Assembly: GCA_003990765.1 (NCBI GenBank)
Contig: RBNJ01000134.1
Location: forward strand, 1 to 39,836
Source: Jimgerdemannia flammicorona
Lineage: Eukaryota
Length of the DNA: 39,836 nt
Direction of reading: 5' to 3'
The notes under the pieces are model-generated. The model was not told the origin of the DNA, ran no database searches, and worked only from the letters and a program-made list of their open reading frames with translations. The translations under genes and the position numbers were made by a program. Of the stretch, positions 7,791-39,593 are shown one piece after another (within the stretch, counting starts at the first letter, position 1; every line of letters starts with the position of its first letter).

Positions 7791-7797
7791 ATTTTCC
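7752..7797 (-). promoter_or_regulatory. Decayed -1 ribosomal frameshift signal (slippery heptamer + 7-nt spacer + 11-bp hairpin)
   Basis: Minus strand GGAAAAT-agcaagc-CCTCTCCAGTA-agactaatgg-TACCAGAGAGG. Restoring one CpG in each arm gives a perfect stem; the heptamer differs from GGGAAAC only by transitions. Confidence 0.7.
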
Positions 7798-8545: not shown

Positions 8546-8559
8546 TTGAGGAATGGTGT

Positions 8560-9340: not shown

Positions 9341-9629
9341 AATTTAGTTTTTCTTCAAAGATAGTAGTGGTTGTATAGATAGTCCTATAAATCCAAGTGC
9401 TTCTTCTTCACTGATATCCCATTAAATGCTTTCCTCCAGACTTTCAGTATTGATGACATCAACAAAAAAGTCTTTTTGGCTACTTTCAGGATCTCTGGGG
9501 GTATTAAAATTACTTCTTAATTCTTGTAGAAAATTTGCTTCACTTTCATTCTCTATAATAGTAAGTATATCTCCATATCTTTGCCATTCAATCTCAGAAG
9601 CCTGATCTGTTTTCCTTAGTGATCCCTTT

Positions 9630-9990
9630 GACTCAATTGGTACCTTGTACTTTTGATCATAGAAGGTGAAGACCAGGAGTTATTTCTTGATGGCTCTAAC
9701 TTGATACAACCAGTTGGTTCCTAAAATCAGATTATAGGAGATCACTAGAGTTACAATAGCTTGAGGTACATTGAGGCAGACTTTTCTAACTTGAATGAGT
9801 ATGTCTCTAATTAGTCCAAAGGGGGTAGATGCTAATCTATCTGCCATAATAACTTTTGCTTTAGTTCTTTTATCAATTCTCTATCCAATCCTTTCTAGTA
9901 TTTGCTGGATAATAATACAGACTGCTGCTTCAGTATCAATAAGGATTCTAGCATTTTCACTATATACTTTCCCATTAGCCAGTCTTGTGG
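9630..9990 (-). pseudogene. Gypsy B aspartic protease
   Basis: ARILIDTEAAVCII ... YNLILGTNWL. Confidence 0.88.
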
Positions 9991-10639
9991 ATTGGTGTTT
10001 TTAGTGCTGATGTTCATGAACTGCATGAATAGTGCTGGACTCCTAGGTGTGTAGTCCTTGGACAGAAACTCTCTTAGTGTCTTCCTTGGCTTCTTTGGGA
10101 AATTTTCGCCTAACTTCTAGTATATTCTTGAGAACTTATTCAAATGTGAGGCCTATATTCTGAGTACAGAGATACTCTCAAAGTGATACTGCTTTATAGG
10201 GCTTGCTACTCCTTCGATGTCTAGGTCTCTTGGGGTAAATCCTCTCATTTCTATTGGGCATTTCATCAGCTGAAGATTCTACACTTATGTACTCATCTTC
10301 TTCAAGATCTGGCAGAGAGGTACTTCTTGATACTCTTGATGGGCCAGCTTCTGGTTCAGGGGTATCTCTTCTGACTCTCTTGTCATTTTCCTGAGAAGTA
10401 TCTGAGGAGGAATGGCCATATCTTGAATATTTGCCTATAGATATAATTACTAGTAATAGTGGTGGAAGTAGGGTTTTTGGAGGTCTTCCTTGTCCTCTGG
10501 TCTGTGCAAGTGCTACATCCCAAGTCACCTTAGAGGGAAAGGCTTCATAAGTCCTCTTGACCACAAAGCCAGGTAGTTTTTTCTTCCATTTCTCAAGTCT
10601 CTTTATCCATTTGAATGAGGTTGACATTTTAGTCATTGG

Positions 10640-11630
10640 ATAGGATTTATTTCTTTGGACAAAATCTCTGAATATGACCTTGGTTCTCACAGTTGAAATA
10701 AGTTGAGGTATAGAGACCTATTGCTGGTAAACTTATAGTTGTAGCTAGTGGAGCCTGAGTGGAACTTCTGTTATCTTGTTACTAGTAGTCTGATCTATTA
10801 TTTCAATGATAATCTTGTTGTCTTCCTTCTTAGTTCTTTAACTGAGTAACTGTAATGACTAGGTCTCTCATTTATTTAGTGAGCATTATTATAGGGTCTT
10901 CTTGAATCCTTAATAGTAGTTGCTGTTACTGCTGTTGTTGTCTGTATTGGCTCAGAGTTGGGGGTCTGGTCTTATAGTTAACTAACTGGGCTCTTAAGTA
11001 AGCATTCTCTTATTCTATAGTTGTGCTATAAGTTTTTAGAGTTTTGACTTGGACTGGTTCTTAATGTTCTTGTATTTACTAAAGTGATCTATAGTCTGCT
11101 TTCCAATATCCTTGTACTCCAGCAACTTATTGCTCAATACTTTAATAGCTTATCCTAATGACTTGTCTTCTAAGCTCTGAAAATATTTCTTTGAGGAAGG
11201 TGGTTGAGACCAAAGCTAGTTGGACTGCAGATTGCAAGTTTGCCTTGATCATTTGAGCTTGAATTTAGTAGTAGAAACTTTTTAGAGTTTCATTAGCAGC
11301 TTGGCTCATATAGGTCAAAGCTTCTTGTACTTCTTATTGACACTCAAGACCATTGAACTGAGTGTAGAGTTAGGTATTATAGATATTATATCTGTCTACA
11401 TGGTCTCCATTTGCTTGAAGGTTGTTGGCTTATTCTGCTCTATAGATTTCTCTTCCAACTTGCTTTGCTTGGTTGTACTTTTGTAGAACAGAGTCTCTCA
11501 GGAGTGATTCTATGATTCTGAGCTTTCTCTGTACATCTCACTACTTGGCTGCTGCTTATACTTCAATTTCTCCAAAGAATTCCTTAATATCTTTACTGTC
11601 TATACTATAGAATTTCTGAAGGTAACTCAT
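10640..11630 (-). pseudogene. Gypsy B gag with zinc knuckle
   Basis: MSYLQKFYSIDSKDIKEFF at 11630 and (C)FNCENQGHIQRFC at ~10660-10700. A disordered coding-like leader continues up to ~12530. Confidence 0.75.
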
Positions 11631-12537
11631 GTCTAGTTCATCTTCACTATCTGAGTCTAATTCTGGAGTAGGATTTCTTAATGATCCTTGAGATGGAGAT
11701 GGTAGAGGTGCTTGATAAATTGGAGGTACTGGTAGAGGGTGGTATCTTGAAGAGGGTATAGAGAATCTGGCCTCTCTAATTAAAGCTAGGGTAGAGATTT
11801 TTGATAGTGGTGATTCTCTAATTAAGTGATAGTGATCACTAAATATAGAGGAGTAGAGCTTCTTGTCTCTTGAAGATAATACTAGGGTGTGAAGGACCAG
11901 GGTACTGGGGTTCTGGTAACTGGGATAGGACTGATGTAGCTGATACTTAGTTCATCTGCCCCTTGCTATTGTAAAGTAATAGGGTTCTGTTCATCTTGCC
12001 AAGGATCTATATTTTTGTCTGAATAGTGATAAAGGTTGAATTTATCTCTTGAATAGTCTGAGCAATTTCCCCAATCATCATCTTTCTCTGGTTCTGGAAG
12101 ATAAGGATGATAGTCTTCTTCTCTTTCAGATATTTCAAAGTATGCTTAGTCTAGTAGAGTGGCTTGAATGATGACAGTAGTAATATAATCACTTCTGCCT
12201 GAATCTCTTTATAGATTAGGGTCTGGTATTCTTCAGAAAAATCTTCTTCTTATTCTGGGCCTTGGGTCTGAATGGATTCTGATTGTCCTCCGAGGTATCT
12301 TCTTTCCTTTGAGGTTAAACCATAGTCTATATTACTTTTTTCTTCTAATTTGGTTTTCTGACTACTGGTCCTGAACAGAGTGAGAGCTGTCTTGACAATT
12401 GTATGAGCTTCTTCTTCTGAGGTAGGCTATTGCTAGTCCTGGTCTTGTTGCTGGCTAGTTTCTCCTGAATTCTCCACTTTAGATGGCTGCTGAGTTCTTG
12501 AGCCAAATGGTCAAGTCTTTAGAAAACTTTCCCAAAA

Positions 12538-17597: not shown

Positions 17598-19276
17598 TGT
17601 GACCCTCATATATTATAGTTACTCTCATAGTTATCTAGTTACTACAGAAAATATATAAATAGTACCAGATACTCAGATTGAGACTACTGAACCTCAAAAG
17701 CACTATACCTTAAAGATACTGTACTCTAAGGGTACAATAGAAGTCACACATCATATTTAGCCATACTGTATATTTTATAATTAATCAGATAGCAACCACA
17801 ACTATATAAAATACCCTAGAGACAAGAGTGAATAAATCTCAGTCAGAAATTAAATCTAAAGCAATAGCTTCTCTTTCCACTCCAGTCTACTTTCTGATAT
17901 AAAGATTGCCTGAGATTTGCTACTAAAGTTTAAGTAAAGAACTTTGCCACCTTTTGAAGAGAAATCTACTGCTTAAGGAATAAGTTACTATATCTTGATT
18001 TACTTACCAGATAAGTCTGAAATTCCTCTTGCCACAAAGCCAGTCTTCTGATGCAACTTCATAATAGAGCCAGTCCATCTGATACAACCCCATGCAAATG
18101 AAGCTAGTCTTTGATATAACTTTGCCAAGAGAAGAGAATCTGAGTTATTCAAAAAGTCTGTTGATTCAGAAAGAATCTGTACTATCTGCAATTCCCAGAG
18201 AGTCCACCTTAAGAAAACTTGCCACAAGCTAGTCTATCTGATACAACTAGTGCTCTCAAAACGAATATTCGAATCAATTCAAAGTGGATATATATGGTAT
18301 TTGAATTGAATTGATTTGATTCAATTTGAATATTATTTTGATTTCCAAATTAGGATACAAACATTTTCCTCAATAACTCCATGAGTTTTCATCTGATTTT
18401 GATGTAACTAGTGTTTTTGGAAAGATCTCTATAATGGCTTTCCAATGATACTAAGATAACTGAAATCAGATGAAAACCTGTAGGTTATTGAGGAAAATGT
18501 TTGTGTTCTAATTTGGAAATCAAAACAATATTCAAATCAAATCAAATTAATTTGATTTGAATACCATATATATATATTCACTTCAAATTGATTTTAATAT
18601 TCGTTTTGGGAGCACTAGATACAACTTTGTAGTAAAGCCAGTCTCTTGATATAACTCTGTGCAAATGAAGCCAGTCCTTGATACAACTTGCTCAAGAATT
18701 TATCTGAGTTACTAAGTTATTCACTATCTGAGTTATTTCTCAGAAGAGCTAATTTAGAAAGAATCTACATCATCTAAATTATCTGAATTATTCAAATTAT
18801 CCATGTCTTTCAAGTTATCTGAGTTATTGAATTATTCACTACCCAAGTTATTTGAATTATTAAGTTATCCACTATTCTCAAAGAGCTTACTGATTCAGGA
18901 GAATCTGTACCAAATCAAGTTATCTATCAAATTATATAAGGAAACTGCCAAATTATCAGACTGCTTCATATAAGGTAATCTGTTATGCTATACAGAGATC
19001 ATTATGCAGAGATTGCTACTACTCAAGAAAGAAACTACTAAATTGCCAGACTATCATATATACTATATTATATACAAATCACTGCTATATTCAGAGAACT
19101 GTTCTAATAAGAAAATTGGCCATTATATTCAGATTGACTATTATACTACTAAATACCAAGGACCTTAAAAATTATAGAATATTTTATTACTTTTTGACAA
19201 AGTAACTGAGGACTCAAGCCAAACTACATCAACCCCTAATCTTGTAATTTTCCTCCATTGAGCCAGATATATTATA
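17598..19276 (+). repeat. 5' LTR of D (contains a MITE)
   Basis: tataaaataccctagagacaagagtgaataaa at ~17805 matches the C LTRs; followed by the PBS TTTGAGGGGCTCAACTGAGA at 19277. Confidence 0.8.
18248..18617. mobile_element. Foldback MITE, hAT-type (370 bp)
   Basis: TAGTGCTC...GAGCACTA termini, exact 8-bp TSD GATACAAC (18240-18247, 18618-18625); the two halves are reverse complements almost to the centre. Confidence 0.92.
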
Positions 19277-19861
19277 TTTGAGGGGCTCAACTGAGAAGAT
19301 TTCAAATTAATATAACTTTTTAGCTTATAAGATCCCATAGTCAAACTAAATATATTTGATATAATACTAATCTCTACTACTATAAGAGAACCAGTCATTA
19401 CCAGCATTTGGACAGAAAGAGAAGTAATTATCTCAAGACTTACTAACTATCCAGTATTAGAAAGATCTCAACAGAAAGCTAGTATAGTATAGAATTCTTA
19501 GCCTATACTAACAAACTTTCTATAGGACTAACTAGATCACACAGACAGCTCTACTAGAATCTTCAATGAGCTTATATAAGAACTTGAAGATCTCATTGCA
19601 TGAACCTGATTCTCTGCAGAAATCCTACCAATTTTACCTATTAAACCTCTCCCATCAGCTGTTACAGAATAAGAAGAACTAGGAGCACCTTCTTCAAGAA
19701 TACTCAGACCTATTGTATCTCATCCAAGATCTCTAACACTCTCTTCAGAATACCCAAGTGTCCCAAACTCCAACCACAACTCAGAAAGTAAACAATAATC
19801 AGAATCTGAATTAGAACTAGAATCTGAACCAGAATTAGAATTAGAGGATAGTAATAATGAA

Positions 19862-22800
19862 ATGGCCACCCCTTTGCCAACTTTTGCAGAATACTCAGAA
19901 GAAGACCCAAGAGAATTTCTTGATAGAATTGAAGAAATTGTAGCTCTGAAGAACCTCTCTCTCAAAAGAAAGATTGTTATCTATAAGGCTCAACTTAGAG
20001 AACCAGTCAAAGAAATCTTTACCTAAGCAAGAAATGACCTAAACTTAGACCTTGGAGTAGCTATCAATGGAGCACCAATCTGGCTAGCAGAGTATAAAGC
20101 CATAATCCACTGGCTTATCAAAAAAATATACAGAAAATGAGATCTACTATAAGGCCCAAGAGTCTATCATAGGAATGAAGATGAATCTTAGAGAATTATT
20201 CAGAGCATTCTTCATAATAATTCAAAAGAGAATATATGCTACTAGATTCAATACTACCAATCAAGACATTATAGGTCCAATGATCTTCATGAATGGGATT
20301 CTCCCAAATATTACTCAGTATATCTACACTCTAGGTATCAGAAGGTCTGAAGAGCAAGTAGATATAGCCCAAGAATTTTTTGATATCAGACAAGGAACCT
20401 AGAGTGACCATGACAAGAAGAATGATAAAGAAGATATTCTGGTTAAAGCCCTACAAGGACTCCTTCAAGGACAGGAGAGATCTAAAGAAAGAAAACCAGC
20501 TAAAGAATGAAAGAAGGATAGAAGTAAAATTTAAGACCTCAGTTCCAAGTTAGACTGATTGGTTGGACAGATTGAAAAACTCACCATATGTAAAAATCAG
20601 AGCTATCCACAAGATAACAGAGGATATATATCACAAAAGAACCAAAGTTATTCACCCAGAGATAACAGGAGCTATCATCAAGAAGAAAGAAAATACCCTA
20701 TCTAAGATAGAGCCCAAGTTTAGTGCTTCTACTGTGGACAATTCAGATACTATGCTACTAAATATAATAATAAAAAAAGTGACTAAAGGGACTCAGAATC
20801 ACCAAACTAAAGAAATGAAACCCAGTATAAGAGAACTGAAGTCTATCCTATCAAAGACTTTGAAGAAGAAAGCAATAGTAAAGACTATAGTAATCTAGAC
20901 CTATACCCAGTCAAAGTTATTATCAAAAAGTTAATTTATCTAGCAGAGAAAAGGAAGAGACCTATAGGAAGATCATCTAGGAACATTAGCAGAAGAATTA
21001 TCTAAGAAAAAGATAAAGGATATGAAGAAGAGCAAGTAGAAACACCTCTTTAATCTCTCTCATCTTTTGTTCCTGAAATAAATAAACTACTCCCAGATAA
21101 TAACAAAATAGAGTAAGAAGAACAGAAATCTGCTGCCCTGAAGCCTAAGAAGAAGTATACTCTGAAGACTATGCCTAGAGATATCTATAATGAAGCCTAG
21201 CAAAAGATTCAAGAAACCAAGATAGAAGTTCCTCTTCTGCAGTTTCTGCAACTGACACTAGCTAGAGTTTAAAACAAATTACTGAGAACTACCAGGTCTA
21301 GCACTGGCCAAGTCCCAATCCCATAGTAAGAAAAAGCTCCCACTCCTATTCAAGCTGTAGAGAGACATGTCAGTACCTATCTATATGGAGATATTAGAGG
21401 ACAAAAGGTGAAAATCTTCATAGATACAAAAGTAGCTGTCTATATCATTGTCAAATGATTTCTGGACACCCTCTAATGGCCTATTGATAGACCATTCAAT
21501 CTCAGCATCATAGTAGCAGATAGAGCCCAAACTCAATTCCTTAGAGAAGTATAAAACATCACTATCTTTCTGAGACATATTCCATTCTTTATCCCAAAAG
21601 CTGTTATCACTGAGACTGTTATCTATGATATGATTCTTGGTACCAACTAGATGAAGGAAATGAATGCAGTTGTTGATATTAGTCAATAAGTACTCAAGTT
21701 TGACTACTGAGGCAAGAAGTATAGAGTTAAGATGACTAGCTATAAGCAATCAAAGAAAAAGAAGAAGGTCACCATTCTAGAAGAATATACTTACAGTAAA
21801 GAGTCTACTATAGAAGAGTAAGAAGAATCTGAAGATAGAAATGATCTCAGGCTCAATCTCTGAATCAACCTAGTGGATGATGGGCCAGAAGATAATGTGT
21901 GAGCCAGAAATACTATCCCTATCACAATCAGAGCTATTGCAGAATAGATCAGAGGATATCCCATCTGTCTCAAAAGACACAAGTACTCTAAACACTCATC
22001 CAAGATCATTGAAACAAGGAATTTGCTTGGAACAGTCTGCCCTGAGTGTAGAAAAAGAAAGAAAAAATACAGACATATTCTGAAGACACCTATAGCTAAA
22101 GCTGCAGAAGTATAAGCAATTTGGGATCAAAAATCATCTGAGGAAGAAGAAACCCCCAAGCAAGAGGTTCCTAAACAAGAAGTATCCAAAGAAAAAGAGG
22201 TCCCCAAACTCATTCCCTGGGATGACCCTCACTAGATACTATCTGAAAACAATGATCCTTGGAATATTGAAGAAGAACTCATTACAATTCCCATTATCTC
22301 AAAGTGAGAAACATATCAGGAAAGAATCTTTTGGCTAGAAAGATGTTTACATCAAATGGTCTTCCACTCTTCCCCAGACTATTGCTACCAGTGCCATCTA
22401 CTGGATCAATAAGAAAGATAGAGACCCTAAAGGTCAGAACTCTTAACTACAATTATATAATCAACCACCTTTCAAGAAGTCACTATAAGGTTACAAAGTT
22501 GATTTAGAGAATAAGATCTCTTTACTCAAACAGAAGTATATCTCTTGGCCACCCTTCTCTCAACTTATAATTAAGATAAATACTGATTCCTAAGATAATA
22601 GGAGATTAATAGCCAGGAATAATATTTTGAGCAATAGAATATTGTAATTATAGAAGACACCCAGACTACCAAGACTACAGATACTAGAAGATTCACCACA
22701 GTCAGGATGTTGTAGTCCACACTTTAAAAAGAAGAGACAATAGAACCCAGATCTGAAAAAGCTAGACCAAGAAACTAAGAAGAAGAATTTTTAAGATCTA

Positions 22801-24258
22801 TAATTTGAGAGAAGATATTATAGCTCTTATCAGACATGTAACTCACTGAGGATGGATAGAAGATGCTATCAATTTTATGGAAGCCTAGACCCAATAAGAA
22901 AAAGAGGAATTAATTATCTCTGATATCTCTCTACTGGAGCCAGATGGCTACACCTCAATCTCAGAGCTTGAAGACTTTCTGTTAGAAGAGCTTCAGCCCA
23001 AGGATAGCCCAAACTCAGCAAGAATATTGCCCAGTATATTCTGCTACATCCTAAGGCCAAACTCCTGACCAAAGCTCACTAAGAAGATATAGAGTATGAT
23101 TTCTACAGTCTGGATGATGAACTCATCAAACCTGGAAAAACATTGGTGTTTAGAACTGAACTAGCCATATAGCAATTCAAAGATACTTATATCTAACTGA
23201 CCTCAAGGTCTGGACTTGTCAGACAGAGAGTAACTGTAAAAGGAGAAACTATGGATCTAGGATATATAGGCAAAATCAAGATCATTCTATATAACAGTAA
23301 TATAGAATAGTACTGATTTTTTGAAGGACAAAAGATTGCTCAAGCAGTCTTCATAAAAGTCAAGACTCCCTAATTATAAGAAGTCTCCAAACTGACTGAA
23401 GGAACAAGGCAAGCTAAAGGATTTGAAAGCTCAGACAAGAAGAAAGTATATCTCCTTTAGGTCAATTATCCCAAAAAGAATACTCCTCAGTAAGTATATC
23501 ACTAATCAGTCAAACTGCACAAGAATCTCATCCTGGAGTATAGAGAGCAAACTACCTTCAAAATCTTTACACTACCTAACTCCAGAAATCTCTTCTTCAA
23601 ACCCAATGAAAATATCCCAAACTTGGATATCAAGGGACATATATTTTCTGACAAGATGAATCCTGTATACTCATGAGCAACTAACCAGAGCTGAGAAAGT
23701 ATCACCTTATCAAAAGGAACCATCATAGGACACCTAGTGTCCTTCCTCAACTAAACTCACAGAGAAGTCTATGAGCTAAATCTATCAGGAAATAGCAAAA
23801 GGTTCTAGAAGAAAGAAAAGGCTCCTCTGTAATCCAGAAGACAGTAAAGCCTTCTACTAACATTGAAGAAGAATTGACACTCTAGCAATGGCAATAACTA
23901 ATAGAACTTCTTAATAAATATCAAGATATCTTCATCATAGACTATAGAAATCTATCATATAACTCACTATATCACTATAGTATAAATATAAGGAATATAA
24001 TACCCATCTGGTAGAAATCTTATAGAATACCCTATTATCTAAAAATATTTGAGAAAGAACAAATTTAGGAACTCTTAGATAATAAAGTTATCTGATCCTC
24101 TACCAACTCTTGAACCAGCCCTATACTTATTATACCAAAAGAAAGGAGGATAGAGACTCAGCATAGACTACAGAAAACTCAATTCAGTTACTAAAAAAAA
24201 TATATATCCTTTGCCCAGAATTGATGACCTCTTAGACTAGTTACAAGATATCAGATAT
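19862..24258 (+). pseudogene. Element D gag - PR - accessory region - dUTPase (~23020-23435) - RT start
   Basis: MATPLPTFAEYSEEDPREFLDRIE, CFYCGQFRYYATK(Y), FIDTKVA, YDMILGTN, TSRSGL, GQKIAQ, RQAKGFESSD, DYRKLNSVTKK. Confidence 0.9.
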
Positions 24259-26480: not shown

Positions 26481-29260
26481 TATCTAGACTCTTGGAGGAC
26501 TGGGTGAGACTGGTGACATTAGAGGGGGAGGAGGACTGGAGATTGATAAGAGTAAGAATGGAGGTGGTTGAACTACAACAGGTGCTGCGGAATGAGGAAG
26601 AGGCAAGGGTCCAGGGTCTAGTGATATGGCTTCATTAGCAGGAGAGAGTGGCCCTCAAAGTTTCTCACAAGAGCCCTTTAGGTGAGAAGGGTGCAACAAA
26701 GGTGGGAGGGGGTGCTTAATGCTGATGGTATATTGGTGTATAGTGTACAAGACATTCTTGGATCATTAAAGGAGCATTGGAGTAGATTGTGGAGTTAGGA
26801 GGAGGGTGGGGCAGATACTGAGGACATTGACTGAGTATTAGAGGGTTGGCACCCTATATGAGCAGATGGGCTGGGTGACTTAGTACTGCTGGTGCAAGAG
26901 GAGGAGATCCACTAGGTTCTTGCCATGATAACCTTGGGTATGGTGCCTGGGAAAGATGGTCTGCTCTGGGACTTCTGGAAAAAGATGGTGGGAGTCCCAG
27001 GAGTACTGGGAGAGATGATGGTACTGTGTGATTGGATTCTACAGATGGGGAGATGGGTGGGAGAACAGGATCTGGGGCTGGTGACATTACTTTATAAGAA
27101 CAAAGGAAGGCGAGAGGACTGGAAGAACTAGAGGCCGATTATGCTACTGGATATGGACAGAAAGTTGGTTACCAAGGTAGTGGTCACAAGATTGCAAAGG
27201 GTGGCCCAGCAAGTCTTGGGGGATGAGCAGAGGGGATTTGTGAGAGGCTGGCTCATCAGGGATAGCACAGCATAGATTCATGGAGTTATTGAAGGGGCAC
27301 GAGCCAGTGGACTAGATGGATATCTGGTCTTTCTGAACCAGGAGAAGGCTTATGACTGAGTGTAATGGGTCTGGCTGGTGAAAGTATTGGATAGGATTGG
27401 GATCCCACACCAGTTCAGGACAGCCATAGTCAACCTACTGGAAGGAAGTAGGGCTGTACATATATAATAGACACAGAGGAGTAGCATTTCCCCTGAGTAG
27501 GGGGGTGCCCCAGGGGGACCCACTGTCTCTCATTTTGTATGCTCTTTCTCTAGAGCCCTTCATAGACAGAATCAGGCAGAAGATAGTGGGGCTCTCTATC
27601 TTTGGCATTAGGTAGAAAGTAGGGGCATTTGCAGATAACATAGTGGTCAGCCTGGGATCAATTGCAGATGTTGAGAAGCTCAAGGAAATAGTGGAGTGGT
27701 ATGAGGTGAACTCAGGGGCTAGACTTAATTGGTATAAGTGCAAAACAATAGTGTTAGGCAATGGTCTGATGGGAGGGGAGATTATTGGTACCATTGTCCC
27801 TGCTGGTGAGGTAGTATGGTACTTGGGTATTTATCTGTCAGTATATAGGTCAGTTCTGCCTAGACTTTGGTGGGAGCAGCAGGTTGGCATCTGGGAGGAG
27901 GCCCTGCAGAGTTGGGGGGGCCACCAATTGTCTCTGGCAGGATGCGTTTTGATTCTGAATGTCTATTGGCTGCCAAAGTTGTGATATCTGGCTTATCATC
28001 TAGACTTCCCAGCTTAGGTGGTGAAGTGATTGATGAAGCTGGCCAAGGGATGGATCTGGGCTAGAAGGTGGAGTCAGATCAGCTGGGAGGTCTTGTCCTT
28101 ACCAGTGGTAAGTGGGGGACTTAGGCTGGTTGACTTTCCTAAGAGGCTGTACTGCTTAAGAGCATGGTGGCTGAAGAGAGTGGTGGAGTTAAGAGGGGGT
28201 GGTTGGGTCTCTCTACTGCAGAAAGTCTGGGAGATGAGGTCCTCTCCAAGGGGTTCAACTGGTGATCTCCTAGCACTTATGGGCCTTCAGAACACCAAAC
28301 AATTGTAATACAAAGGCTTCTGGTAGGGAGTGGCAGAGGGGGTGTGCTGCATTGGAATTAGGTGGCAGGGAAATGAAGAAGAGGCAGCTTGGGACCCAGT
28401 GATATGGAGATGGGACCAAGTGTTACTGGGTGGCATTTCCTTGATTGAGTTTGATATTGGTGATGGGATCGAATGCCAATGGGAACCAGGCCAGGACCTG
28501 TGGCCTAGCAGTTAGCAAGGAGTAGGAATTAGTGAGGAGTGGAACTGGCGTAGTATTTGGGCCTGGAGTGCCGAGGTGAGGAGGTGGCTGCTGCTGAAGT
28601 ACTGGGTGGTCTGGTGGTGTGTGCTGAGGCAGAATGTCATGCTCAACTTCCACTCAGATTATCTTATCGAGAGAGGTTGCTTCGACTGTAAAGAGTGTTA
28701 TAATGTAGGGCAGGAAGGGGGATATACATATGCAGATGCCTGAACATTGGCTAGGAGAGTGTGAGGTACTTAGTATCTTTTGGTAGAACATTGGGGATCA
28801 TTTGGGGGTAGTGTGTAGGGGAGCTGGCATGTGGGAGCGATGGGAGGATTTAAGGAATAGATTGGAGAGAGGGGTGGGGAAGGAATAGCTGACATTAGGC
28901 TGGGCTTTGGCCATTTGGGTGGGGCTGGCCAGTCACTGATTATTTGTTTTTGAGGATGGGAGGAGACTTGGCTCAGAGGTCAGGCTGCTGAGGTGGCATA
29001 GCCTTATGGAAGACACCTCGATGGACTGGTGGCTTAGTTGGGGGTTGCAGGGGGGTCGAAGGCATTGTTTGGTAGAGAAAATCTGTAGGCAGAGTGGGGG
29101 GAGAGTGGGAATTGCAGGTGAGAAAGTGGTCTTTGTCCATGTGGGTGGGGGAAGTGATACCCCTATGGGGATCAGGTAGTGGGAGGATATACTGTAAACT
29201 TATTGATAGACCAGTAATAAATGGCAGAGTCCAAGTGACTATAAAAATAAAAAAAAAAAA
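26481..29260 (+). mobile_element. L1/Tx1-clade LINE (copy 2), 5'-truncated, poly(A)-tailed
   Basis: LLYKNKGRREDWKN, QEKAYD, GVPQGDPLS, AFADN, FDCKEC..EHWLGEC. A-tail at 29241-29260; degenerate TSD tgtagtaatcttgagac (26464) / tgtagcaatctcaaaac (29262). Confidence 0.93.
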
Positions 29261-29376
29261 TTGTAGCAATCTCAAAACCCAACCAGGTGATGTAGACATT
29301 AGCATAGCATAGTAACCAGTAACCATTGCTGTGGAAAATGTATAAATAACCCAGATAGCTAAAGAAAGAAAAAACC

Positions 29377-29466
29377 CTGACAGTGGCTGTTACTCTAACA
29401 GTGGCTATCACCCTAACAGTGACTGTCATTCTGACAGTAGCTGTCACTCTGACAGTGAATGTTACC
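29377..29466 (+). repeat. 5 x 18-bp palindromic tandem array in the LTR (also 38642-38731)
   Basis: Consensus cTGACAGtggCTGTCAcy. Confidence 0.88.
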
Positions 29467-30391
29467 CCATAAATAGCATTCTATAGTTAGTCATATAGCA
29501 ACCAGATAGCAACCACAATGTATAAAATATCCCAGAGACAAAAGTGAATAAACTTCAGTCTAAAATACAAATATCAAAAAAGTCTCTAAAGATTGAGCAT
29601 TGGTCCCCTTTCCACTTCAGTCTACTTTTTGATACAAAGCTTGAAGTTTGCTGCCTTTAGAACTATTGGTTCACTTGCCAGATAAGCCTGAAGATCTCTG
29701 CCCAAGAGAAAGCCACCTTGCTCAAACCAGTTTCTGATACAACTTCACAGTGATCTGTTCATGCAAATGAAGTCAGTCTTTAATGCAACTTTGTCAAGAG
29801 ACCTTTTCCAAGAAGCCTGCCAATTCAGGAAGAATCTGCATCAGTAGTATTCCCAGTTGAAGCTGCTAATTTAGAAGAATCCACACTACCTGAGTTATTA
29901 TTCCCAGAAGTCTGCTGATTCAGGAAGAATCCATAATATCCGAGTTATCTGAGTTATCTGCATTACCTGCCATTTTCAAGTTATCTACATTCCTAGTTGA
30001 AGCTGCCAATTCAGGAAGAATCCATGACATTCGAGTTATCTGTATCACCCAAGTTATTCCTTTGTTCTCAGTAAGCCTGGTACAGAAGAATTTGCTGCCA
30101 GTACAATTCCCAGTAAGAAGGATCTATACCTTCCTCCATCCCCAGTGAGCCAAATCAAGTTATTTGCCAAATTATCAGAATGTCTACATAAGGAACCCAT
30201 TATGCTATACAGAGATTATCATATAGAAATCATATAAGGAGAACTACTAAATTGCTAGACTATCACACTCAGAAGATTGTTACACTACACAGAGATTGTT
30301 GCACCAAGACCATCATCCAGAAATTGCATACTTTTGGAAATTGCCTCACTATACAAATTGTGGCATTCCCAGTTGACCTAAGAAGGAAGCC

Positions 30392-31534: not shown

Positions 31535-34500
31535 ATGGCCACCTTATTGCCAACCTTTGCAGGATACCTGGAGGAAGACCCCAGAGAATTCCTTGATAGA
31601 ATTGAAGGAATTGCAGTCTTGAGAAATCTCTCAGATGAAAGAAAAATTGCCATCTACAAAGCTCAGCTCAGAGAACCAGCCAGAGAAATTTTCTACTAAA
31701 CAGCAAATAACCCAGATTCAGAACTAGCAAGACAGATACAAGCAGCAATATCTTATGAGCTAGAATATGAGGCCATGGTCCACTGGCTCATTGAAAAGTA
31801 TGCAGGAAATGAAACCCACCATAAGGCTCAAGAATTCATCATAAAGATGAAGATGAATCTTAGAGAATCACCCAGAGCCTTCTTTACAAGAATCCAGAAG
31901 AGAATACATGCTGCTGGATTCAATGCCACCAACCAGAACATCATAGGTCCAATGATCTTCATGAATGGAATTCCCCTGAATATTGCCCAGCATGTCCACA
32001 CCCTAGACATCAGAAGGTTGAAAGAATAAGTAGATATAGCCTAAGGATTCTTTGATGTCAGACAAGAAACTATCTGGAGTAATTATGATAAGAAAGAAGA
32101 TAAAGAAGATATCCTGGTCAAAGCCCTACAAGGACTCCTTCAAGGACAAGAAAGATCTGAAGAAAGAAGGCCAGCTAAGGAAGGAAAGAAGAACAGAAGC
32201 AAAATTCAAGATCTCAGCTCCAAGTTGGACCGATTGGTTGGACAGATTGAAAAACTTATCACATGTGAAAATTGGAGCTACCAAGACAACAGAGGACACC
32301 AGAGAAACCAAGGTTATCCACCAAGAGATAATAGGAATTACCAGCAGGAAGAAAGAAGGTACTCTGTCTAAGACAGAGCCCAAGTCCAATACTTCCACTG
32401 TAGACAATTTGGGCACTATGCTACTGAATGTGACAATAAAAGAAGTGACTGAAGGGACTCAGAACCACCAAACTGAAGGAATGACACTTAGTACAAGAGG
32501 ACTGAAGCTCATCCTATTGAAGATTTTGAGGAAGCCAGTAATAGTGAAGACTACAGTAACCTAGACTTATATCCTACCAAAGTTATCACCCAAAAAACAG
32601 TTTACCTAGCAGAGAAGAGGAAGAGACCTATAGGAAGGCCATCCAGGAATATCAGCAGAAGAATTATCCAAGAGGAGAATGAAGAACATGAAGAGAAGTA
32701 GGTAGAAATACCTCTCTGAACCCCCTCTTCTTTTGTTCCTGAGACAAACAAGTTGCTACCAGAAGATGAAGAAATGGAACAAGAAGAATGAGAACCTGCT
32801 ACTCCAAAGCCCAAGAAGAAGTACACTTCAAAGACCATGCCTAGAGATATCTATAATGAAGCCTGGTAGAAGATTTAAGAGATCAAGATAGAAGTCTCCC
32901 TCCTGCAGTTCCTATAACTGACACCAACTAGAGTCTGAAACAAATTGCTGAAAACCACCAGGTCTAGCACTGGCCAAGTTCCCATCCCACAGCAAGAACC
33001 AGCTTCCATTCCTATTCAGGCCACAGAAAGATATATCAGTACCTACTTATATGGAGATATTGAAGTACAAAAGGCAAAGATTCTTATAGATACAGAAGCA
33101 GCTATCTATGTCATTGCCAAATAGTTCCTGGACACCTTCCAATGGTCCATTGATAGACCATCTAATCTCAGCATCATAGTGGTAGATGGAGTCCAAACTC
33201 AACCCCTTGGAGAAGTATGAAATATTACTATCTCCCTGGGACACATTCAGTTCTCCATCCCAAAAGCTGTTGTCACTGAAGCTATTACCTATGACATGAT
33301 TCTTAGTACCAACTGGATGAAGGAAATGAATACAGTTGTTGACATCGGTCAACAGATACTCAAGTTTGACTACCAAGACAAGAAGTATAGAGTTAAGATG
33401 ACTAGTTATGAACAATTGAAAAAGAAAAAGAAGGTCACTATTTAGAAAGAATATGCCAGCAGTGAGGAGTCTACTATAGAAGAGGAAGAAGAATCTGAAG
33501 ATGGAAATGATCCTAGACTCAATCCCCAAATTAACCTGGTAAATAACAGACCAGAAGACAATGTGTGGGCCAAGAACACCATCCCTATCCCCATTGGAGC
33601 CATCACAGGAGAAATTAAAGGATGCTCTACCTGCCTCAAGAGACATAAGTGTCCTGAGCATTCCTCCAAGATCATAGGAACAAGGAAATCACCTGGCACA
33701 GCCTGTGCAGAGTGCAGAAAGAAGAAGAAGAAATCCAGACATATTCCAGGAATACCTGCAACTGAAGCTGCAGAAGTACAAGCAATTTGGGGGTCAAGAA
33801 TCATCTAAGGAAGAAGAAACTTCTGATCAAGAAGTCCCTGAACAAGAAGCACCTGAAGAAGAAGAGGTCCTCAAACTCATTCTCTGGGATAATCTTCATT
33901 AAACACTACCTGAAGACAATGACCCTTGGAATACAGAAGAAGGACCCAGTACAATCACCATTATCCCCAAGAAAGAAACTCACCAAGAAAAGACTTTTCA
34001 GCTAGGAAGATGTCCACATCAAATGGTCTTCCACTCTTCCCAAGACTACTGCTATCAGTGCCATTTACTAGACCAATAGGAAAGACAGAGACCCCAGAGA
34101 CCAGAACCCCCAAACACACTTGCACAGTCAACTACCTTCTAAGAAATTACCACCAAGTTGCAAAGCCAATTCAGGGGACAAGGCTTCTTTACCCAAACAG
34201 AAATATATCTCTTGTCTACTCTTCCACCTACTTATGACTAAGATGGATACTGATTCCTAAGGCAATAAGAAATTAACAGCCAGGAATACCATTTTCGAGC
34301 AATAGGATATTGCAACCATGGGAGACACCCTGACTGCTGAGACTGTAGACATCAGAAGATTTACCTCAGTTATGATGTCACAGTCCATACTTTGAAGAGA
34401 GGAGACAACAGAGGCCAGATCTGAAAAAGCCAAACCAGGAAGTCAGGAAGAAGAATCCTCAAGATCTATGATTTGGGAGAAGACATCCTAGCTCTCATCA

Positions 34501-35501
34501 GACATACAATCCACCAAAGATAGGCAGAAGATGCCACCAACTTCATGGAAGCCCTAGACTCTACAGGAAGAAGGGGAATCATCTATCTCTGAGACCCCTC
34601 TACTGGAGCCAGATGGCCACACCTCAACCTCAGAGCCTAGAGGCTCTCTGCTAGTAAAGTCTCAGCTCTAGGACAGCCTGAACTCAGTAAGGATATTGCC
34701 CAGTATGCTCTGCTGTACCCCAAGGCCAAACCCCCAACCAAAGCCCACCCAGAAGATGTAGAGTATGATCTTCACAGTCTGGAGGATGAATCTATCAAAT
34801 CTGGAAAAACCTTCATGATCAGAACCAGATTAGCCATGCAGCCACCCCAAGGATCTTACATCCAACTGACCTCAAGGTCTGGACTTGCCAGACAAGGAAT
34901 AACTATGGAAGGAGAAACCATTGACCCAGGATATATAGGCAAAATCAAGGTTATCTTACATAATAGCAGTACAGAATAGCACTGAATCATTAGAGGACAG
35001 AAGATTGCCCAAGCAGTCTTTATGAAGATCAAGACCCCACAGTTACAAGAAGTCTCTGAACTAACTGAAGAAATAAGACAAGCTAAGGGATTTGGAAGTT
35101 CAGATAGGAATGAAGTATATCTCCTTCAAGTCAACCATCTCAAGAGGAATGTTTCTCAGCAAGTATACTGGCAATCAGTCAGACTGTATAAGAATCTTAT
35201 CCTGGAGCCCAGAGAACAAGCTACCTTCGAAATCTTTGCACCACCCAACCTCAGGAACCTTTTCTTTGAACCCAGGGAAAATATCCCACACCTAGATATA
35301 GAGGGACACATATTCCCTGACAAGATGAATCCAGTACACTCCCGAGCAACCAACCAAAGTTGAGAGACCATCATCTTGTCAAAAGGAACCATCATAGGAC
35401 ATCTGGTGCCTTTTCTCAACTGAACTCATAGGGAAGTTTATGAACTAAACCTATCAGAAAATGGCAAAAGGTCTCAGAAGAAAAGAAAGGCCCCTCTGTG
35501 A
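31535..35501 (+). pseudogene. Element C ORF1: Gag - zinc knuckle - protease - Cys/His fingers - unknown domain - dUTPase - dUTPase-like domain
   Basis: MATLLPTFAGYLEEDPREFL; (C)FHCRQFGHYATEC at ~32390; ILIDTEAA at 33080 in the Gag frame. The single 1-nt slip at ~33790 is absent in D. Confidence 0.88.
34689..35105 (+). pseudogene. Element C trimeric dUTPase domain
   Basis: All five motifs: VEYDL, SRSGL, ETIDPGYIG, GQKIAQ, RQAKGFGSSD. Confidence 0.93.
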
Positions 35502-37990
35502 CCCAAGAGACAGTAAAGCCTTTCACCAACATTGGAGAGGAATTGATACTCCAACAAAACTAGTAGAACTTCTCAACAAATATCAAGATATCTTCACTAC
35601 CGATTATGGTAACCTGCCATACAATCCATCATATCACTACAGTATAAATATAAGAAACACAACACCCATCTGGCAGAAACCCTATAGAATAGAAAACATT
35701 CAAAAAGAAGCACATTCAAGAACTCTTAGACAATGGGGTCATCTGACTCTCTACCAGCCCCTGGGCCAGTTCTATACTTATTGTACCAAAGAAAGGAGGA
35801 TAGAGACTCTGCATGGATTACAGAAAACTCAATTCAGTCACCAAAAAGAATGTCTATCCTCTGCCCAGAATTGATGACCTCTTGGATCAGTTACAAGATA
35901 CCAGATACTTCAGCAGTATGGATCTCTTCGCAGGATTCCATGAGATCCCCATAGACCCCAAGGACATTCAAAAGACAGCCTTCCTTACTCTAGAAAAACT
36001 GTTTGAGTACCTCTGAATGCTCTTTGGACTTTGCAATGCACTCCCCACCTTTCAGAGGATGATGAATTCAGTCTATACCCCCTTGATTCACCACTGTCTG
36101 ATTGTATACATGGATGATTCCAACATCTATTCAGCAAATTTTGAAGAATACCTGTACTACCTAGAGAAATTCTTCAAACTCACCTGCAAGAACCACTTGA
36201 GACTGAATGCAAAGAAATGTTACTTTGGGAAACAGAAACTTGAATTCCTTGGATTCATAGTTTCAAAAGAAGGAATCCATGCAGACCCAAAGAAAACTGA
36301 GAAGATTAACAATTGGCCAGTATCCAAAACCCTGAAGGAAACACTATCATTTCTGATGTTAGTATCCTACTACAGAAGGTTTATCAAAGACTTTGCCCAA
36401 ATTGCTGCCCTGATTCAAATCCTTCTTAAGAAAGAAGTGCCATTCAAATGGACAGAAACACAAGAAAAAGCCTTCAGAGAACTCAAGAACTACATGACTA
36501 TAGCACTAATTCTTGTATACCCCAATCTACAGAAGCCATTCATCTTATATATAGATGCTTCTAAAGATATCCTTGGGGAAGTTCTGGCCTAAGAAGGACC
36601 CAATCAACAGCACCATGTGATAGCTTATGTAAGCAGAGCTACCCGTTAGCAGCAGATAAACTATAGTAGTACCAAATTGGAATACCTTGTAGTCATATGG
36701 GCAGTCATCCTGTTCAAGCATTACCTCATTGGAAAAAGGTTCACCCTGATCACAGACCATGTAGCCCTTAAGTAGCTATTCAACTACAAGGAACCCACTG
36801 GGATCCTAGCCTGCTGGATCTTTATCCTTCAGGATTACAAAATGACCATCATTTATAAAGCAGAGAAAGCCTACAATAATGTTGATGTACTTTCCCACCA
36901 GCCCCAATGAACCAGAAGGGTGTCCCAAGGAACTATACCCTAAAGAAAGCTCCTCAGACCATCAAGACACAAGAAGATCTCATCTGAAAAGAATATCAGA
37001 AAGCCCATCAAGGATAGGTGAATATAGAAGAGAAGTTGTGAACAATACACCAACATTGGCCCAACCTCAGAACACAAGTCTAGGACATAGTTAAGAAATG
37101 TGATATCTACCAAAAGTACCAAGGAAGGAAGAACTATCAAGCACTACTGTAACCAATTGCACTACCAGACAACATCCTTCAGAGATGGAGAGTAGATGTA
37201 ATTGGACCTCTACCAGTTATACTAAGAAGAAACAAATATATCCTTATATTTATAGAACATCTGACCAAGTGGCCCAAGGCTTTTCCAATGGAAATTGCAG
37301 ATGCCTTAACTATTGTAGGCCTCCTCTATAGACTCATACTCAGATATAGACCCCCAGAAGAACTTATCTCTGACTGAGGCACAGAATTCATCAATAACAT
37401 AATCACAAGTTATGCCCAAATTCACAAGATCTACCTCAAAAGGACTATATCATATCACCCTCAGACCAATGGTATGACAGAGAGAATGAACCAGACCATC
37501 AAGAAAGAACTTGTCTGAGTCAATTCTACTAATTGGGACCTCTGCTTACCTGAGATTCTATGGAAATTTGGAACACCCCTACTGCCTCTACCAAACAAAA
37601 GCTATTCAAAATGGTGTTTGCCAAGAAAACCAGAACTGCTGATCATGAGAATCTTGAAGACCTCCTCAAGAAGGCAGAACAATTACATAATCAAGCCTGA
37701 GGACAGATTATCAAAGCCCAAGAAAGACAAAAGAAGTATTATGACCAGAAATAGAAAGATCAGAAGATCAAAATTGGTGATCAAGTCCTAGTTTGGAGAA
37801 GTATAATAGAAACAAACTTTGCTACTAAACTGGAACTAAAATGAGAAGGACCATACCTTATATACAACATCAGAGAAACCAGCATCTATATAAGAAGCAT
37901 GAATGGACATGTCTTGAGAACTCCAGTCCACATCAATTGCCTCAAGATATACCTGTACAAATCATGACTCAGAGGATAGATCAACATCTC
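35463..37990 (+). pseudogene. Element C ORF2: RT - RNase H - integrase (GPY/F motif, no chromodomain)
   Basis: DYRKLN..YPLPRIDD, FGLCNA, YMDD (~36106), YIDAS, LITDH, WPNL..CDI, VDVIGPLP, YHPQTNG, EGPY (~37850). Confidence 0.95.
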
Positions 37991-38509: not shown

Positions 38510-39593
38510 TGTGACAAACCACAAAATATAGTAATCTCGAAATCCAACCAGATGACATGAACATTAGCATAGCATAGTAACTAGCAACCATTGCTGTAGA
38601 AAATGTATAAATAACCCAGATAGCTAAAGAAAGGAAAAACCCTAACAGTGGCTGTTACTCTGACAGTGGCTGTCACTCTGATAGTAGCTGTCATCCTGAT
38701 AGTAGCTGTCACCCTGACAGTGAATATCACCTCATAAATAGCATTCTATAGTTAGTCATATAGTAACCAGATAGTAACCACAATATATAAAATACCCCAG
38801 AGACAAGAGTGAATAAACCTCAGTCTGAAATATAAATACCAAAGAAGCCTCTAAAAATTGAGTATTAGTCCTCTTTCCACTCTGGTCTACTTTCCAATAC
38901 AAAGCTTGAAGTTTGCCACCAAGTTCAAGAAAGAACTTTGCCACCTTTAGAACTATTGGTTCACTTGCCAGATAAGCCTGAAGATCTCTGCCTAAGAGAA
39001 AGCTGCCTTGCTCAAGCCAGTTTCTGATACAACTTTACAGTAATCTATTTATGCAAACAAAGCCAGTCTTTAATGCAATTTTATCAAGAGACCCTTTCCA
39101 AAAAGCCTGCCAATTCAGAAAGAATCTATGTCAGTAGTATTCCTAGTTGAAGCTACTAATTCAGAAGAATTCACACCACCTAAGTTATTATTTCTAGAAG
39201 TCTACTGATTCAGAAAGAATCTGTGATATCTGAGTTATCTGAGTTATCCACATCATCCACTATTTTCAAGTTATCCACATTCCTAGTTGAAGCTGCCGAT
39301 TCGGGAAGAATCTGCAACATTCAAGTCATCTGCATCACCTGAGTTATTCCTTTGTTCCCAGTAAGCCCAATATAGAAGAATCTGCTACCAGTATAATTCC
39401 CAGTAAGAAGGATCTGTACCTTCCTCCATCTCCAGTGAGCCAAATCAAGTTATTCATCAAATTATCAGAACATCTACATAAGGAACCCATTGCATTACAC
39501 AGAGATCATTATACAGAAATCACATAAGGAGAACTACTAAATTGCCAGACTGTCACACTCAGAAGATTGTCACACTATACAGAGATCATTGTA
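38510..39593 (+). repeat. 3' LTR of C, interrupted ~290 bp before its end
   Basis: Colinear with the 5' LTR until agagatcattgta. Confidence 0.92.

Follow-up and report, generated by a model that had tools for sequence, protein, structure and literature searches.

Copies of a Ty3/gypsy retrotransposon on a contig of Jimgerdemannia flammicorona (RBNJ01000134.1) change reading frame between a dUTPase-like region and the reverse transcriptase (RT), which raises the question of whether this step marks a programmed -1 frameshift, with protease and dUTPase on the Gag side of it, or only the decay of dead copies. The window analyzed, meaning the whole stretch of DNA, comprised 39,836 nt (positions 1 to 39,836 of the contig). 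Three copies within it, termed B, C, and D, all belong to one Ty3/gypsy (Metaviridae) family and have decayed, mostly through transitions, to the point of being dead; the ratio of transitions to transversions was 944:149, and the observed/expected CpG ratio was 0.00 to 0.03 in B, C, and D. The coding region of copy C is bounded by two long terminal repeats (LTRs), as in a Ty3/gypsy LTR retrotransposon, and the Ty3/gypsy domain order of protease, RT, RNase H, and integrase was recovered from Pfam matches along C, from the protease of the related metagenome protein P0049, and from tblastn matches of the gypsy polyproteins P0005 and P0013. No env was seen in the element represented by the copy C family. 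The copies and the main parts of C are as follows.

5400..12000, minus strand: copy B, whose DNA at the junction is ~50% identical to that of C.
19069..24257, plus strand: copy D, with 77% identity to C, ending inside RT.
29258..30296, plus strand: 5' LTR of copy C (direct repeats D1 and D2; 85.5% identity to 38523-39586 over 1064 columns).
31535..35516, plus strand: decayed ORF1 of copy C, from the ATG at 31535, with gag, protease, Cys-rich region, dUTPase, beta domain, and basic tail (alignment of P0049).
34725..35102, plus strand: dUTPase of copy C, frame 0 (Pfam PF00692, E 1e-12 for profile positions 3-85 and 2.5e-5 for 92-128).
35525..36907, plus strand: ORF2 start in copy C (..TNIGEELIL..), then RT and RNase H (tblastn of P0001; Pfam RVT_1 and RT_RNaseH).
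37054..37690, plus strand: integrase region of copy C (Pfam rve and rve_3; tblastn of P0005 and P0013).
38523..39586, plus strand: 3' LTR of copy C (match to 29258-30296, 85.5%).

The reading frame of C agreed with the original prediction that Gag begins at ATG 31535 and continues into protease without leaving its frame. ORF1 of this copy has numerous in-frame stops and is read in frame 2 upstream of ~33789 and in frame 0 downstream, an extra base private to C, which the original prediction did not mention, being present near 33789 in a G run between protease and dUTPase; it is absent from copy D and from P0049. In three-frame translations of C, the codons of ..VYELNLSEN.. start at 0 mod 3, the dUTPase frame, and those of ..TNIGEELIL.. 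start at 2 mod 3, a step of -1. ORF1 of D lies at 1 mod 3 and its RT at 0 mod 3, which is again a -1 step at the same junction, as had been predicted for the two copies. ORF2 of C is disturbed locally by two private deletions, one of 7 nt (35557/8) and the other of 11 nt (35691/2), 18 nt in all, recognized by comparison with copy D and with soil metagenome contigs; once these are allowed for, the RT frame of C, which is 60% identical to P0001 over 35675-36907 (tblastn), is the TNIGEE frame. C and D differ by 20 indels over 5.1 kb of alignment, none of them between C 34552 and 35558, and the junction was therefore inherited by both copies through descent. The junction in C is delimited by the following codons.

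35441..35443, plus strand: TGA, the last -1-frame stop before the RT frame opens in C, after which the overlap begins (three-frame translation).
35499..35501, plus strand: TGA in ORF1 of C at a position that is Arg in P0048 and P0057, and hence a decay stop (protein alignment and translation).
35514..35516, plus strand: TAA at which ORF1 ends in the C-like subfamily (35511-35513 pairs with the final residue of P0048).

The ORF1/ORF2 overlap in C thus spans 35444-35516 (~70 nt); its -1 frame holds no ATG, and coding is conserved in both frames across it, for example PTLER over TNIGEE. As expected at a frameshift signal, C, D, and B each have a downstream ORF that overlaps the upstream one at -1 and carries no start of its own. 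In copy B, on the minus strand, the dUTPase is at 0 mod 3, ..EEVFKFLENSK.. at 2 mod 3, and RT at 0 mod 3. This matches a -1 step (2 to 0 mod 3) only if a 1-nt indel at ~7845, within the TA/T run ATATATATTTT, is private to B, and the need for one such indel had been foreseen.

These copies could also be read as having come from an ancestor with a single gag-pol ORF, or with a gag/pol shift before protease, the -1 step then going back to an indel that C and D both inherited, and B having gained two more. Such a history would suit sequences as full of stops and indels as B, C, and D, a junction that C and D share by descent, and a copy B whose dUTPase and RT share a frame and are separated by only ~90 nt read in a different one. 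However, B would need two indels in ~60 nt, whereas the observed rate is ~1 per 500 nt (its ORF1 has four other frame breaks), and the proteins related to ORF1 end where the frame changes. A HMMER protein search with C 34986-35360 returned five proteins at E<=0.001, of which three, P0048 (226 aa, 73% identity), P0049, and P0052 (312 aa), are relatives of the ORF1 tail; the other two, P0050 and P0051, proved unrelated to it. All three relatives stop short of RT, 20-45 residues past a YE(L/F)N motif, and P0057 likewise ends shortly past the junction motif without RT. P0052 comes from a 3909-nt contig, and P0048 and P0057 come from contigs of 3067 and 1553 nt, respectively. P0048 aligns unbroken to frame 0 of C over 34836-35513 at 72% identity, its stop corresponding to the TAA at 35514-16. 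P0049 is an unbroken metagenome ORF of 1179 aa with gag, CCHC, protease (392-502), Cys-rich region, and dUTPase (897-1021; PF00692, E 1.3e-32) and no RT; it terminates ~40 residues beyond YE(L/F)N, and its residues 1-1172 aligned to C 31847-35558 with one frame break, far upstream, in a frameshift-aware alignment. The JGI name of this protein is simply dUTP pyrophosphatase, and the ESM Atlas look-alikes of its tail (best score, 0.85) are leads only.

As P0049 shows, a trimeric-type dUTPase is placed between protease and RT. This protein ends before RT, and protease and dUTPase were not found to share an ORF with RT downstream of a gag-pol boundary. PDB dUTPases matched at E 4.9e-24, and the predicted model of P0052 matched dUTPase chains with a Z of 16.7 and an rmsd of 2.0 over 118 residues; the best match of the beta domain that follows (P0052 ~170-256, pLDDT 71-91) was a generic beta sandwich at Z 5.5, which gave no assignment. 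The dUTPase and RT were joined in one protein in none of 47 RT relatives and none of three dUTPase-tail relatives (648-2064 aa), and a search with the dUTPase segment among longer proteins gave no matches. The best RT relative, P0001 (63%), begins at LKEFEDIF. We infer the frame relation of ORF1 and RT for P0049 from these protein ends and from the record of P0049 and P0001 each on a 6987-nt JGI contig. A metagenome scan with P0001 gave 14 loci, the best 46% identical and none from the B/C/D family, and viral contigs and genome contigs searched with P0049 and P0001 gave no matches. The 46% RT relative (L001), in which the protease frame is -1 relative to RT and the two overlap by 7 nt in a run of A, was set aside, as it has a further RT stop and no dUTPase; at another locus (L002), protease and RT share one ORF.

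The junction was also compared with 2027 related soil-metagenome contigs (run X1), all short, aligned to C at a likeness of at least 80%. None of the 12 indels listed of 13 fell across 35440-35530, and the C-private 7-nt gap at 35557 was filled at a depth of 83/83. Among sequencing runs, part of the window (share, 0.10) was found in one soil-metagenome study only, and no RNA runs containing window sequence were listed. Because the intact or longer ORFs of relatives end at the junction and the contigs list no indel there, these sequence comparisons identify the architecture, gag to dUTPase in ORF1 and RT, RNase H, and integrase in the -1 frame, as a family trait and not an accident of dead copies. 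Its explanation as an artefact of decay is largely refuted and has very little probability left, and the ORF1/ORF2 boundary is very probably real and in need of recoding.

The reading that we favor, with a probability of slightly less than 0.6, is that ORF1 and ORF2 are fused by -1 frameshifting in their overlap. An active ORF1 would encode a Gag with a CCHC knuckle, protease, the Cys-rich region, a complete trimeric-type dUTPase, the small beta domain, and a basic tail, and ORF2 (RT, RNase H, and integrase) would overlap its end in the -1 frame with no start codon. Given that overlap and the missing start codon, the ORF2 enzymes would be made only as an ORF1-ORF2 fusion, through programmed -1 ribosomal frameshifting within 35444-35516 (C). 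Protease and dUTPase output would then equal Gag output, and polymerase and integrase alone would be rationed. We infer ribosome slippage itself, its site, and its frequency. The earlier proposal that protease, finger domains, and dUTPase are made at the Gag level, with only RT, RNase H, and integrase limited, is supported as to the architecture (P0049, P0048, P0057, and P0052); the mechanism is putative, no strict heptamer having been found.

The lack of a slippery heptamer in the copies would also suit expression with no fusion at all, the ORF2 enzymes being made from a spliced or internally initiated product, or RT and integrase being supplied in trans by other elements. We regard this as improbable, since the -1 frame of C has no ATG from the stop at 35441-43 to the RT motifs and the ORFs overlap as they do in classical frameshifting retroelements; in addition, packaging of RT and integrase normally needs fusion to Gag.

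For the favored -1 frameshift, the likeliest slip site would be a conserved R_GRA_AAT at (Ser/Leu)-(Gly/Glu)-Asn codons, represented in C by the following feature.

35456..35462, plus strand: candidate slip site of C, A_GAA_AAT, not a strict XXXYYYZ, at the center of a window in which base class is conserved at 15/15 positions.

The predicted 7-mers AGAAAAT at 35456 (C), AGGAAAT at 23787-23793 (D), and GGAAAAT at 7797-7791 on the minus strand (B) were all present as described. In a 411-column alignment, scanned for conservation once the site was already known, 35454-35468 was the sole 15-nt window in which purine/pyrimidine class was kept at 15/15 positions in B, C, and D. The three 201-nt stretches searched in C, D, and B contained no strict X_XXY_YYZ heptamer in the ORF1 frame; a strict slippery heptamer would exist only after presumed transitions are reverted. 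With regard to GGGAAAC as the ancestor, all three copies carry T, not C, at position 7. Immediately before the 7-mer, C and D have the codon TCA and B has TTG, which would fit two decay products of a CpG-bearing TCG, and the residues at the site, Ser-Gly-Asn in P0048 and P0057 and Leu-Gly-Lys in P0049, would allow N_GGN_AAN. We judge a -1 slip at exactly this 7-mer to be somewhat better supported than an even chance.

The boundary could be real and recoding could nevertheless occur elsewhere in the overlap, at Lys-Gly-Lys codons (A_RRA_AAG, 35483 in C) or at a noncanonical site with a lineage-specific stimulator, the 7-mer being conserved by dual-frame protein and nucleotide constraint. The -1 frame directly after the 7-mer reads TAG in B and D and TGG in C, and P0048, judged by its Asn-Asp residues, may have a -1 stop there as well; an ancestral TAG would require the slip to lie beyond it. 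A further heptamer candidate, weak and at the class level, occurs in C and D only (AAGAAAG at 35483 and AGAAAAG at 23814, respectively), and P0048, P0057, and P0049 keep KGKAPL in the ORF1 frame, with K(R/E)KAPL in C and D. Constraint of this kind is further suggested by the conservation of both overlap frames (PTLER over TNIGEE). Against this, the second site has no counterpart in B, TGG becomes TAG easily by G-to-A decay, the first base of the next codon is G in three of four C-like sequences (C, P0057, and P0048), and the spacing of a hairpin in B is right for the first site. We therefore consider recoding elsewhere to be rather unlikely, though a more serious contender than expression with no fusion.

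For the preferred slip at the 7-mer, a downstream stem-loop would assist, at least in the B lineage, in which two hairpins were found.

7752..7783, minus strand: hairpin in B, lying 7 nt 3' of the 7-mer, with 11 pairs, two mismatches (C.A and A.C, each at a CA dinucleotide), and a 10-nt loop.
7709..7746, minus strand: second hairpin in B, with 12 pairs including two mismatches and a 14-nt loop.

The first of these is the 11-bp hairpin that had been proposed for B, seen here as 11 pairs with two mismatches. By criteria set after the site had been seen, hairpins of such quality numbered four in 6601 nt of B, three of them within 7854-7709. Structure downstream in C and D had been described as less clear, and no convincing one was found: neither copy has a hairpin of at least 10 pairs downstream of the 7-mer. 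A candidate stem-loop 5-9 nt downstream is present only in B (7-nt spacer), and three sequences are too few for covariation. Folding 3' of the 7-mer was no better than that of shuffled sequences (z of -1.36 for C, +0.59 for D, and -1.05 for B). A pseudoknot drawn by eye in C and D (GUCUC/GAGAC plus GAAAGGC/GCCUUUC) was rejected, as its first stem is lost in the comparison of C with D. Rfam gave no families at the gathering score in the whole window, and the junction gave only a chance U6 match (E 0.59).

The position of a recoding signal sets the amount of each enzyme made per capsid protein, and descriptions of gypsy-type elements usually put protease, together with any dUTPase, on the pol side of it. 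If a clade has both enzymes on the Gag side, it would provide a second, independent instance of the layout that avian alpharetroviruses have for protease, and a natural test of whether the dosage of protease and dUTPase matters. Annotation pipelines that assume a gag/pol boundary before protease will mis-split or mis-score such elements. A dUTPase between protease and RT is itself already known from fungal and rotifer elements, having been placed there in bdelloid Juno, Vesta, and TelKA (PMC5408684) and in basidiomycete PosPlaTy3-5 and Phanerochaete elements (PMC2864245). Unlike in the family described here, the bdelloid PR-dut-RT-RH-IN is described as one pol gene behind a gag-pol frameshift (PMC5408684); the fungal survey (PMC2864245), whose structure table could include a layout like the present one, gives gag and pol either as a single fused ORF or as separate ones. 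A description of a gypsy element with a frameshift between protease/dUTPase and RT was not found in the open-access text searched.

The original comparison with a retroviral pro-pol shift held for the alpharetrovirus (RSV/ASLV) layout but not for the betaretroviral gag/dut-pro/pol layout, as both appear in PMC12789967. According to that paper, RSV and ASLV encode PR within Gag, and alpharetroviruses are the closest working analogue: as proposed for our element, Gag and protease are translated together, and one -1 shift before RT rations RT and integrase only. The element differs from them in being Ty3/gypsy by RT similarity and in having a Cys-rich region, dUTPase, and beta domain between protease and the proposed shift. 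Betaretroviruses (MMTV and MPMV) have a -1 pro-pol shift with dUTPase upstream of the shift into RT (PMC12789967 and PMC2238898). Their gag/dut-pro/pol genes use two -1 shifts, with dUTPase N-terminal to protease behind the gag-pro frameshift, whereas here gag to dUTPase is one ORF (P0049), a single shift would suffice, and dUTPase is C-terminal to protease, residues 392-502 of P0049 (protease) preceding residues 897-1021 (dUTPase). We give an even chance to the proposal that soil-fungus Metaviridae arrived independently at the alpharetrovirus plan, with a giant ORF1, a -1 slip at an ancestral G_GGA_AAY, and a lineage-specific stem-loop, dosing only RT, RNase H, and integrase; if this is true, protease and dUTPase would be present in each particle in numbers resembling those of the capsid protein.

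The gag-protease-dUTPase/RT-integrase layout is unusual but not unprecedented. In Skipper of Dictyostelium, described by Leng et al. in 1998, protease is reportedly separated from pol by a frame change, which would be a gypsy-type precedent, although Skipper has no dUTPase, unlike the element here. In a later review (PMC5006619), Skipper-1 is given simply as ORF1 gag and ORF2 PR-RT-RH-IN-chromodomain. The sole named relative of ORF1 found was Geosiphon pyriformis KAG9298930.1 (P0054), which is distant from the P0049 tail (27% identity over 79% of the tail) and is a gene model of unsure accuracy; like ORF1, this 916-aa model combines gag-like, protease-like, and dUTPase regions and ends without RT.

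The window is a eukaryotic transposon graveyard, and the elements that bear on the analysis are the following.

29258-30296 and 38523-39586: LTRs (85.5% identical) of copy C, a complete LTR element
19069-24257: copy D, 77% identical to C and truncated within RT
about 12000-5400, minus strand: copy B, far more diverged (DNA identity of about 50% at the junction)
344-5081, minus strand: a LINE-like (non-LTR) retrotransposon whose ORFs are long and open

Stops were found throughout every frame of copies B, C and D. Of the 5093 bases aligned between C and D, 1093 differed, through 944 transitions and 149 transversions, C-to-T differences were most frequent before A (281 of 537), and the CpG observed/expected ratio was 0.03 in C, 0.00 in D and 0.01 in B. 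The CpG loss and transition excess indicate that these copies are dead and heavily deaminated. The 6:1 transition excess and CpG ratios of 0.00-0.03 in B (5400-12000), C (30300-38500) and D (19069-24257) also suggest that repeats of this genome have been hypermutated, through methylation or by a RIP-like process. Both LTRs of C contain a unit of about 71 nt at 91-nt spacing (29915-30076 and 39205-39366), an additional copy of which (repeat family D9) lies upstream of D at 18749-18819.

In C, the frame of the dUTPase (Pfam PF00692) and of the ..VYELNLSENGKRSQKKRKAPL.. after it is 0 mod 3, and that of ..TNIGEELIL.. is 2 mod 3, a step back of one base from the dUTPase frame; D has the same frame pair, 1 then 0 mod 3. 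Translation therefore confirmed the -1 step between the dUTPase tail and RT claimed by the original prediction for C and D. None of the 20 indels between C and D falls between C 34552 and 35558. Downstream, C carries two private deletions, one at 35557/8 (7 nt) and one at 35691/2 (11 nt), which sum to a multiple of three, so that the RT-RNase H match of C (35675-36907, 60% identity) to P0001, an RT relative, is in the TNIGEE frame. The overlap in C runs from a -1-frame TGA at 35441-43 to the stop at 35514-16 of ORF1, which encodes gag, protease, a Cys-rich region, dUTPase, a beta domain and a tail; ORF2 encodes RT, RNase H and integrase. We consider this -1 boundary between ORF1 and ORF2 to be real, with a probability of roughly 0.85.

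On the minus strand of B, the frame again steps by -1, from ..EEVFKFLENSK.. (2 mod 3) to RT (0 mod 3). The dUTPase of B is also at 0 mod 3, the same as its RT, so B fits a -1 step from dUTPase to RT only if it carries a private 1-nt indel near 7845, a position that falls within ATATATATTTT. The alternative, that the frame layout of C, D and B is due to decay, is unlikely; reading B as a single ORF requires two indels within about 60 nt, compared with about one per 500 nt in the rest of B. The frames of B thus provide modest independent support for the -1 boundary.

Five lines of evidence point to design over decay. An every-protein HMMER search with C 34986-35360 as query (E<=0.001) returned five proteins, three of which were relatives of the tail. 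In the ORF1 relative P0049, one ORF runs without interruption for 1179 aa and encodes a CCHC knuckle, then an aspartyl protease at residues 392-502, followed by a Cys-rich region and, at residues 897-1021 (E 1.3e-32), a dUTPase that is complete. This ORF ends about 40 residues past ..IYEFNLGKD.. without reaching RT, about 22 codons beyond the ORF1 stop of C. P0052 (312 aa) has the same end point and the same ..HSSHWRK.. tail. P0048 (226 aa; identity to C of 73%) terminates at ..KAPLRLRRK, as does P0057 from the same cluster. P0048 aligned unbroken with frame 0 of C from 34836 to 35513, and therefore its stop corresponds to the C TAA at 35514-16; the in-frame TGAs of C at 35361, about 35421 and 35499 are Trp, Arg and Arg in P0048. 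In frameshift-aware alignments, P0049 residues 1-1172 matched C 31847-35558 with one frame break, near 33789, where a G run of C has an additional G that D and P0049 lack; D and B needed three and four breaks, respectively. A dUTPase and an RT were found together in none of the 47 RT relatives among longer proteins and in none of the three tail relatives of 648-2064 aa. The best RT relative, P0001 (63%), has its N-terminus at LKEFEDIF, and it and P0049 are each recorded on a 6987-nt JGI contig; P0049 as ORF1 and P0001 as ORF2 probably belong to a single intact element. The two-ORF architecture is supported by independent intact relatives. Among the ORF1 relatives only one is named, a Geosiphon pyriformis (glomeromycete) gene model that shares 27% identity over the tail; that the host is a soil fungus would be a guess.

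One soil metagenome is rich in this family, and 2027 of its contigs aligned to C at 80-100% likeness. Among the 12 of 13 indels listed for these contigs, none was in 35440-35530. The private 7-nt gap of C was filled in 83/83 depth, and its 11-nt gap was marked by loose contig ends. The extra G at C 33789, which breaks ORF1 between protease and dUTPase, was missing in only 58/256 depth (one contig), and the broken state seems to be common to many copies elsewhere. A 46% RT relative from a metagenome, locus L001, is without dUTPase, and its protease ORF ends in frame -1 to RT, the two overlapping by 7 nt at an A run (370-376), a step that could be decay or a related layout.

We propose that full-length RNA would be translated starting at the gag AUG, that most ribosomes would complete ORF1 and release a Gag-protease-Cys-rich-dUTPase-beta-domain product, and that a minority would slip one base back in the overlap, most likely at the Gly-Asn codons, and read on into RT-RNase H-integrase. 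If so, protease and dUTPase would match Gag in amount, with rationing confined to the polymerase and integrase. We infer the location and mode of the slip; a rival is that ORF2 is expressed without fusion to ORF1.

The candidate 7-mers AGAAAAT (C, 35456), AGGAAAT (D, 23787) and GGAAAAT (B, 7797-7791) and the hairpin of B were found where predicted. A strict X_XXY_YYZ heptamer in the ORF1 frame was found at the junction in none of the three copies. Across the 411-column alignment of the B, C and D junctions, the 7-mer centers the only 15-nt window (35454-35468) with an identical purine/pyrimidine pattern. At this spot C, D, P0048 and P0057 encode Ser-Gly/Glu-Asn, B encodes Leu-Glu-Asn and P0049 encodes Leu-Gly-Lys, each of which fits N_GGN_AAN. 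Of the originally suggested ancestral GGGAAAC, the first G is plausible for the common ancestor, because the codon ahead of it reads TCA in C and D but TTG in B, the two expected decay products of a CpG-containing TCG, and CpG has been erased in the copies. The C at position 7, which would have created a second CpG, is possible but not required; all three copies have T, and an Asn codon ending in T also satisfies the rule. A slip at the 7-mer is plausible. A slip elsewhere in the overlap is favored by the TAG that directly follows the 7-mer in the -1 frame of B and D (TGG in C), but the TAG of D looks derived, since in the C-like group C, P0057 and P0048 keep G as the first base of the next codon. 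A second, weaker candidate, the Lys-Gly-Lys codons at 35483 in C, is confined to the C/D lineage.

The hairpin of B (7783-7752) has 11 pairs and begins 7 nt past the 7-mer. Its two mismatches, C.A and A.C, lie at two CA dinucleotides and are the expected remnant of a decayed CCGG core. By criteria chosen post hoc, B has just four hairpins of comparable quality in 6601 nt, and three of these fall within 7854-7709. No hairpin of at least 10 pairs was found downstream of the 7-mer in C or D, fold energies were not better than those of shuffles (z of -1.36 in C, +0.59 in D and -1.05 in B), and Rfam gave no match for a downstream structure. In the B lineage a stimulator is likely, if weakly shown; one in C and D is unproven. 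Directly upstream of the 7-mer, C (35423-35446) and D (23754-23777) share a hairpin of 10 pairs that has a 4-nt loop and two mismatches.

The proposed likeness to a retroviral pro-pol shift held for the alpharetroviral type, in that the family works alike with extra modules added, and failed for the betaretroviral layout. In the passages of the sources consulted, retroviral protease is placed in Gag (RSV, ASLV), in Pol (HIV-1, MLV) or in its own ORF (MMTV, MPMV) (PMC12789967), and the dUTPase of betaretroviruses in the pro region (PMC12789967, PMC2238898). A dUTPase between protease and RT is described there for bdelloid Juno, Vesta and TelKA and for basidiomycete elements (PMC5408684, PMC2864245), the bdelloid one lying within pol, behind the gag-pol shift (PMC5408684); the family in the window differs from this layout as well. 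In surveyed animal LTR elements with separate frames, pol is mostly -1 to gag, according to a survey summarized in PMC5009743. Searches of open-access text found no description of the exact ORF1/ORF2 layout. In Skipper of Dictyostelium, protease is reported to be separated from pol.

Between the dUTPase and the shift site, C 35103-35440 encodes a conserved domain, all beta and about 85 residues long, with counterparts at P0052 residues ~170-256 and P0049 residues ~1040-1130; it was modeled with pLDDT 71-91 and had no Pfam family, and its best structural match (Z 5.5) was to generic beta sandwiches. Between protease and dUTPase, a stretch of about 300-400 residues (C ~33600-34650; P0049 residues ~560-880), kept in C, D and P0049, has an acidic run and two Cys clusters (e.g., ..GRCxH..CxxC.. 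and ..CxC..CxxC..) and likewise no Pfam family.

The LINE-like element adjoins the integrase end of B. Its ORFs are of 501 aa (no Pfam match), 304 aa (Exo_endo_phos endonuclease, E 2.5e-8), 442 aa (RVT_1, E 3.3e-24) and 154 aa. With a GC content of 56%, a CpG observed/expected ratio of 0.40 and a strong plus-strand C-over-G skew, it looks far younger than the adjacent LTR copies. The region at 26000-29000, between D and the 5' LTR of C, has a GC content of 45-50% and a strong positive GC skew that mirrors the LINE at 1-5000, but a CpG observed/expected ratio of 0.08, and is probably an older LINE fragment in the opposite orientation.
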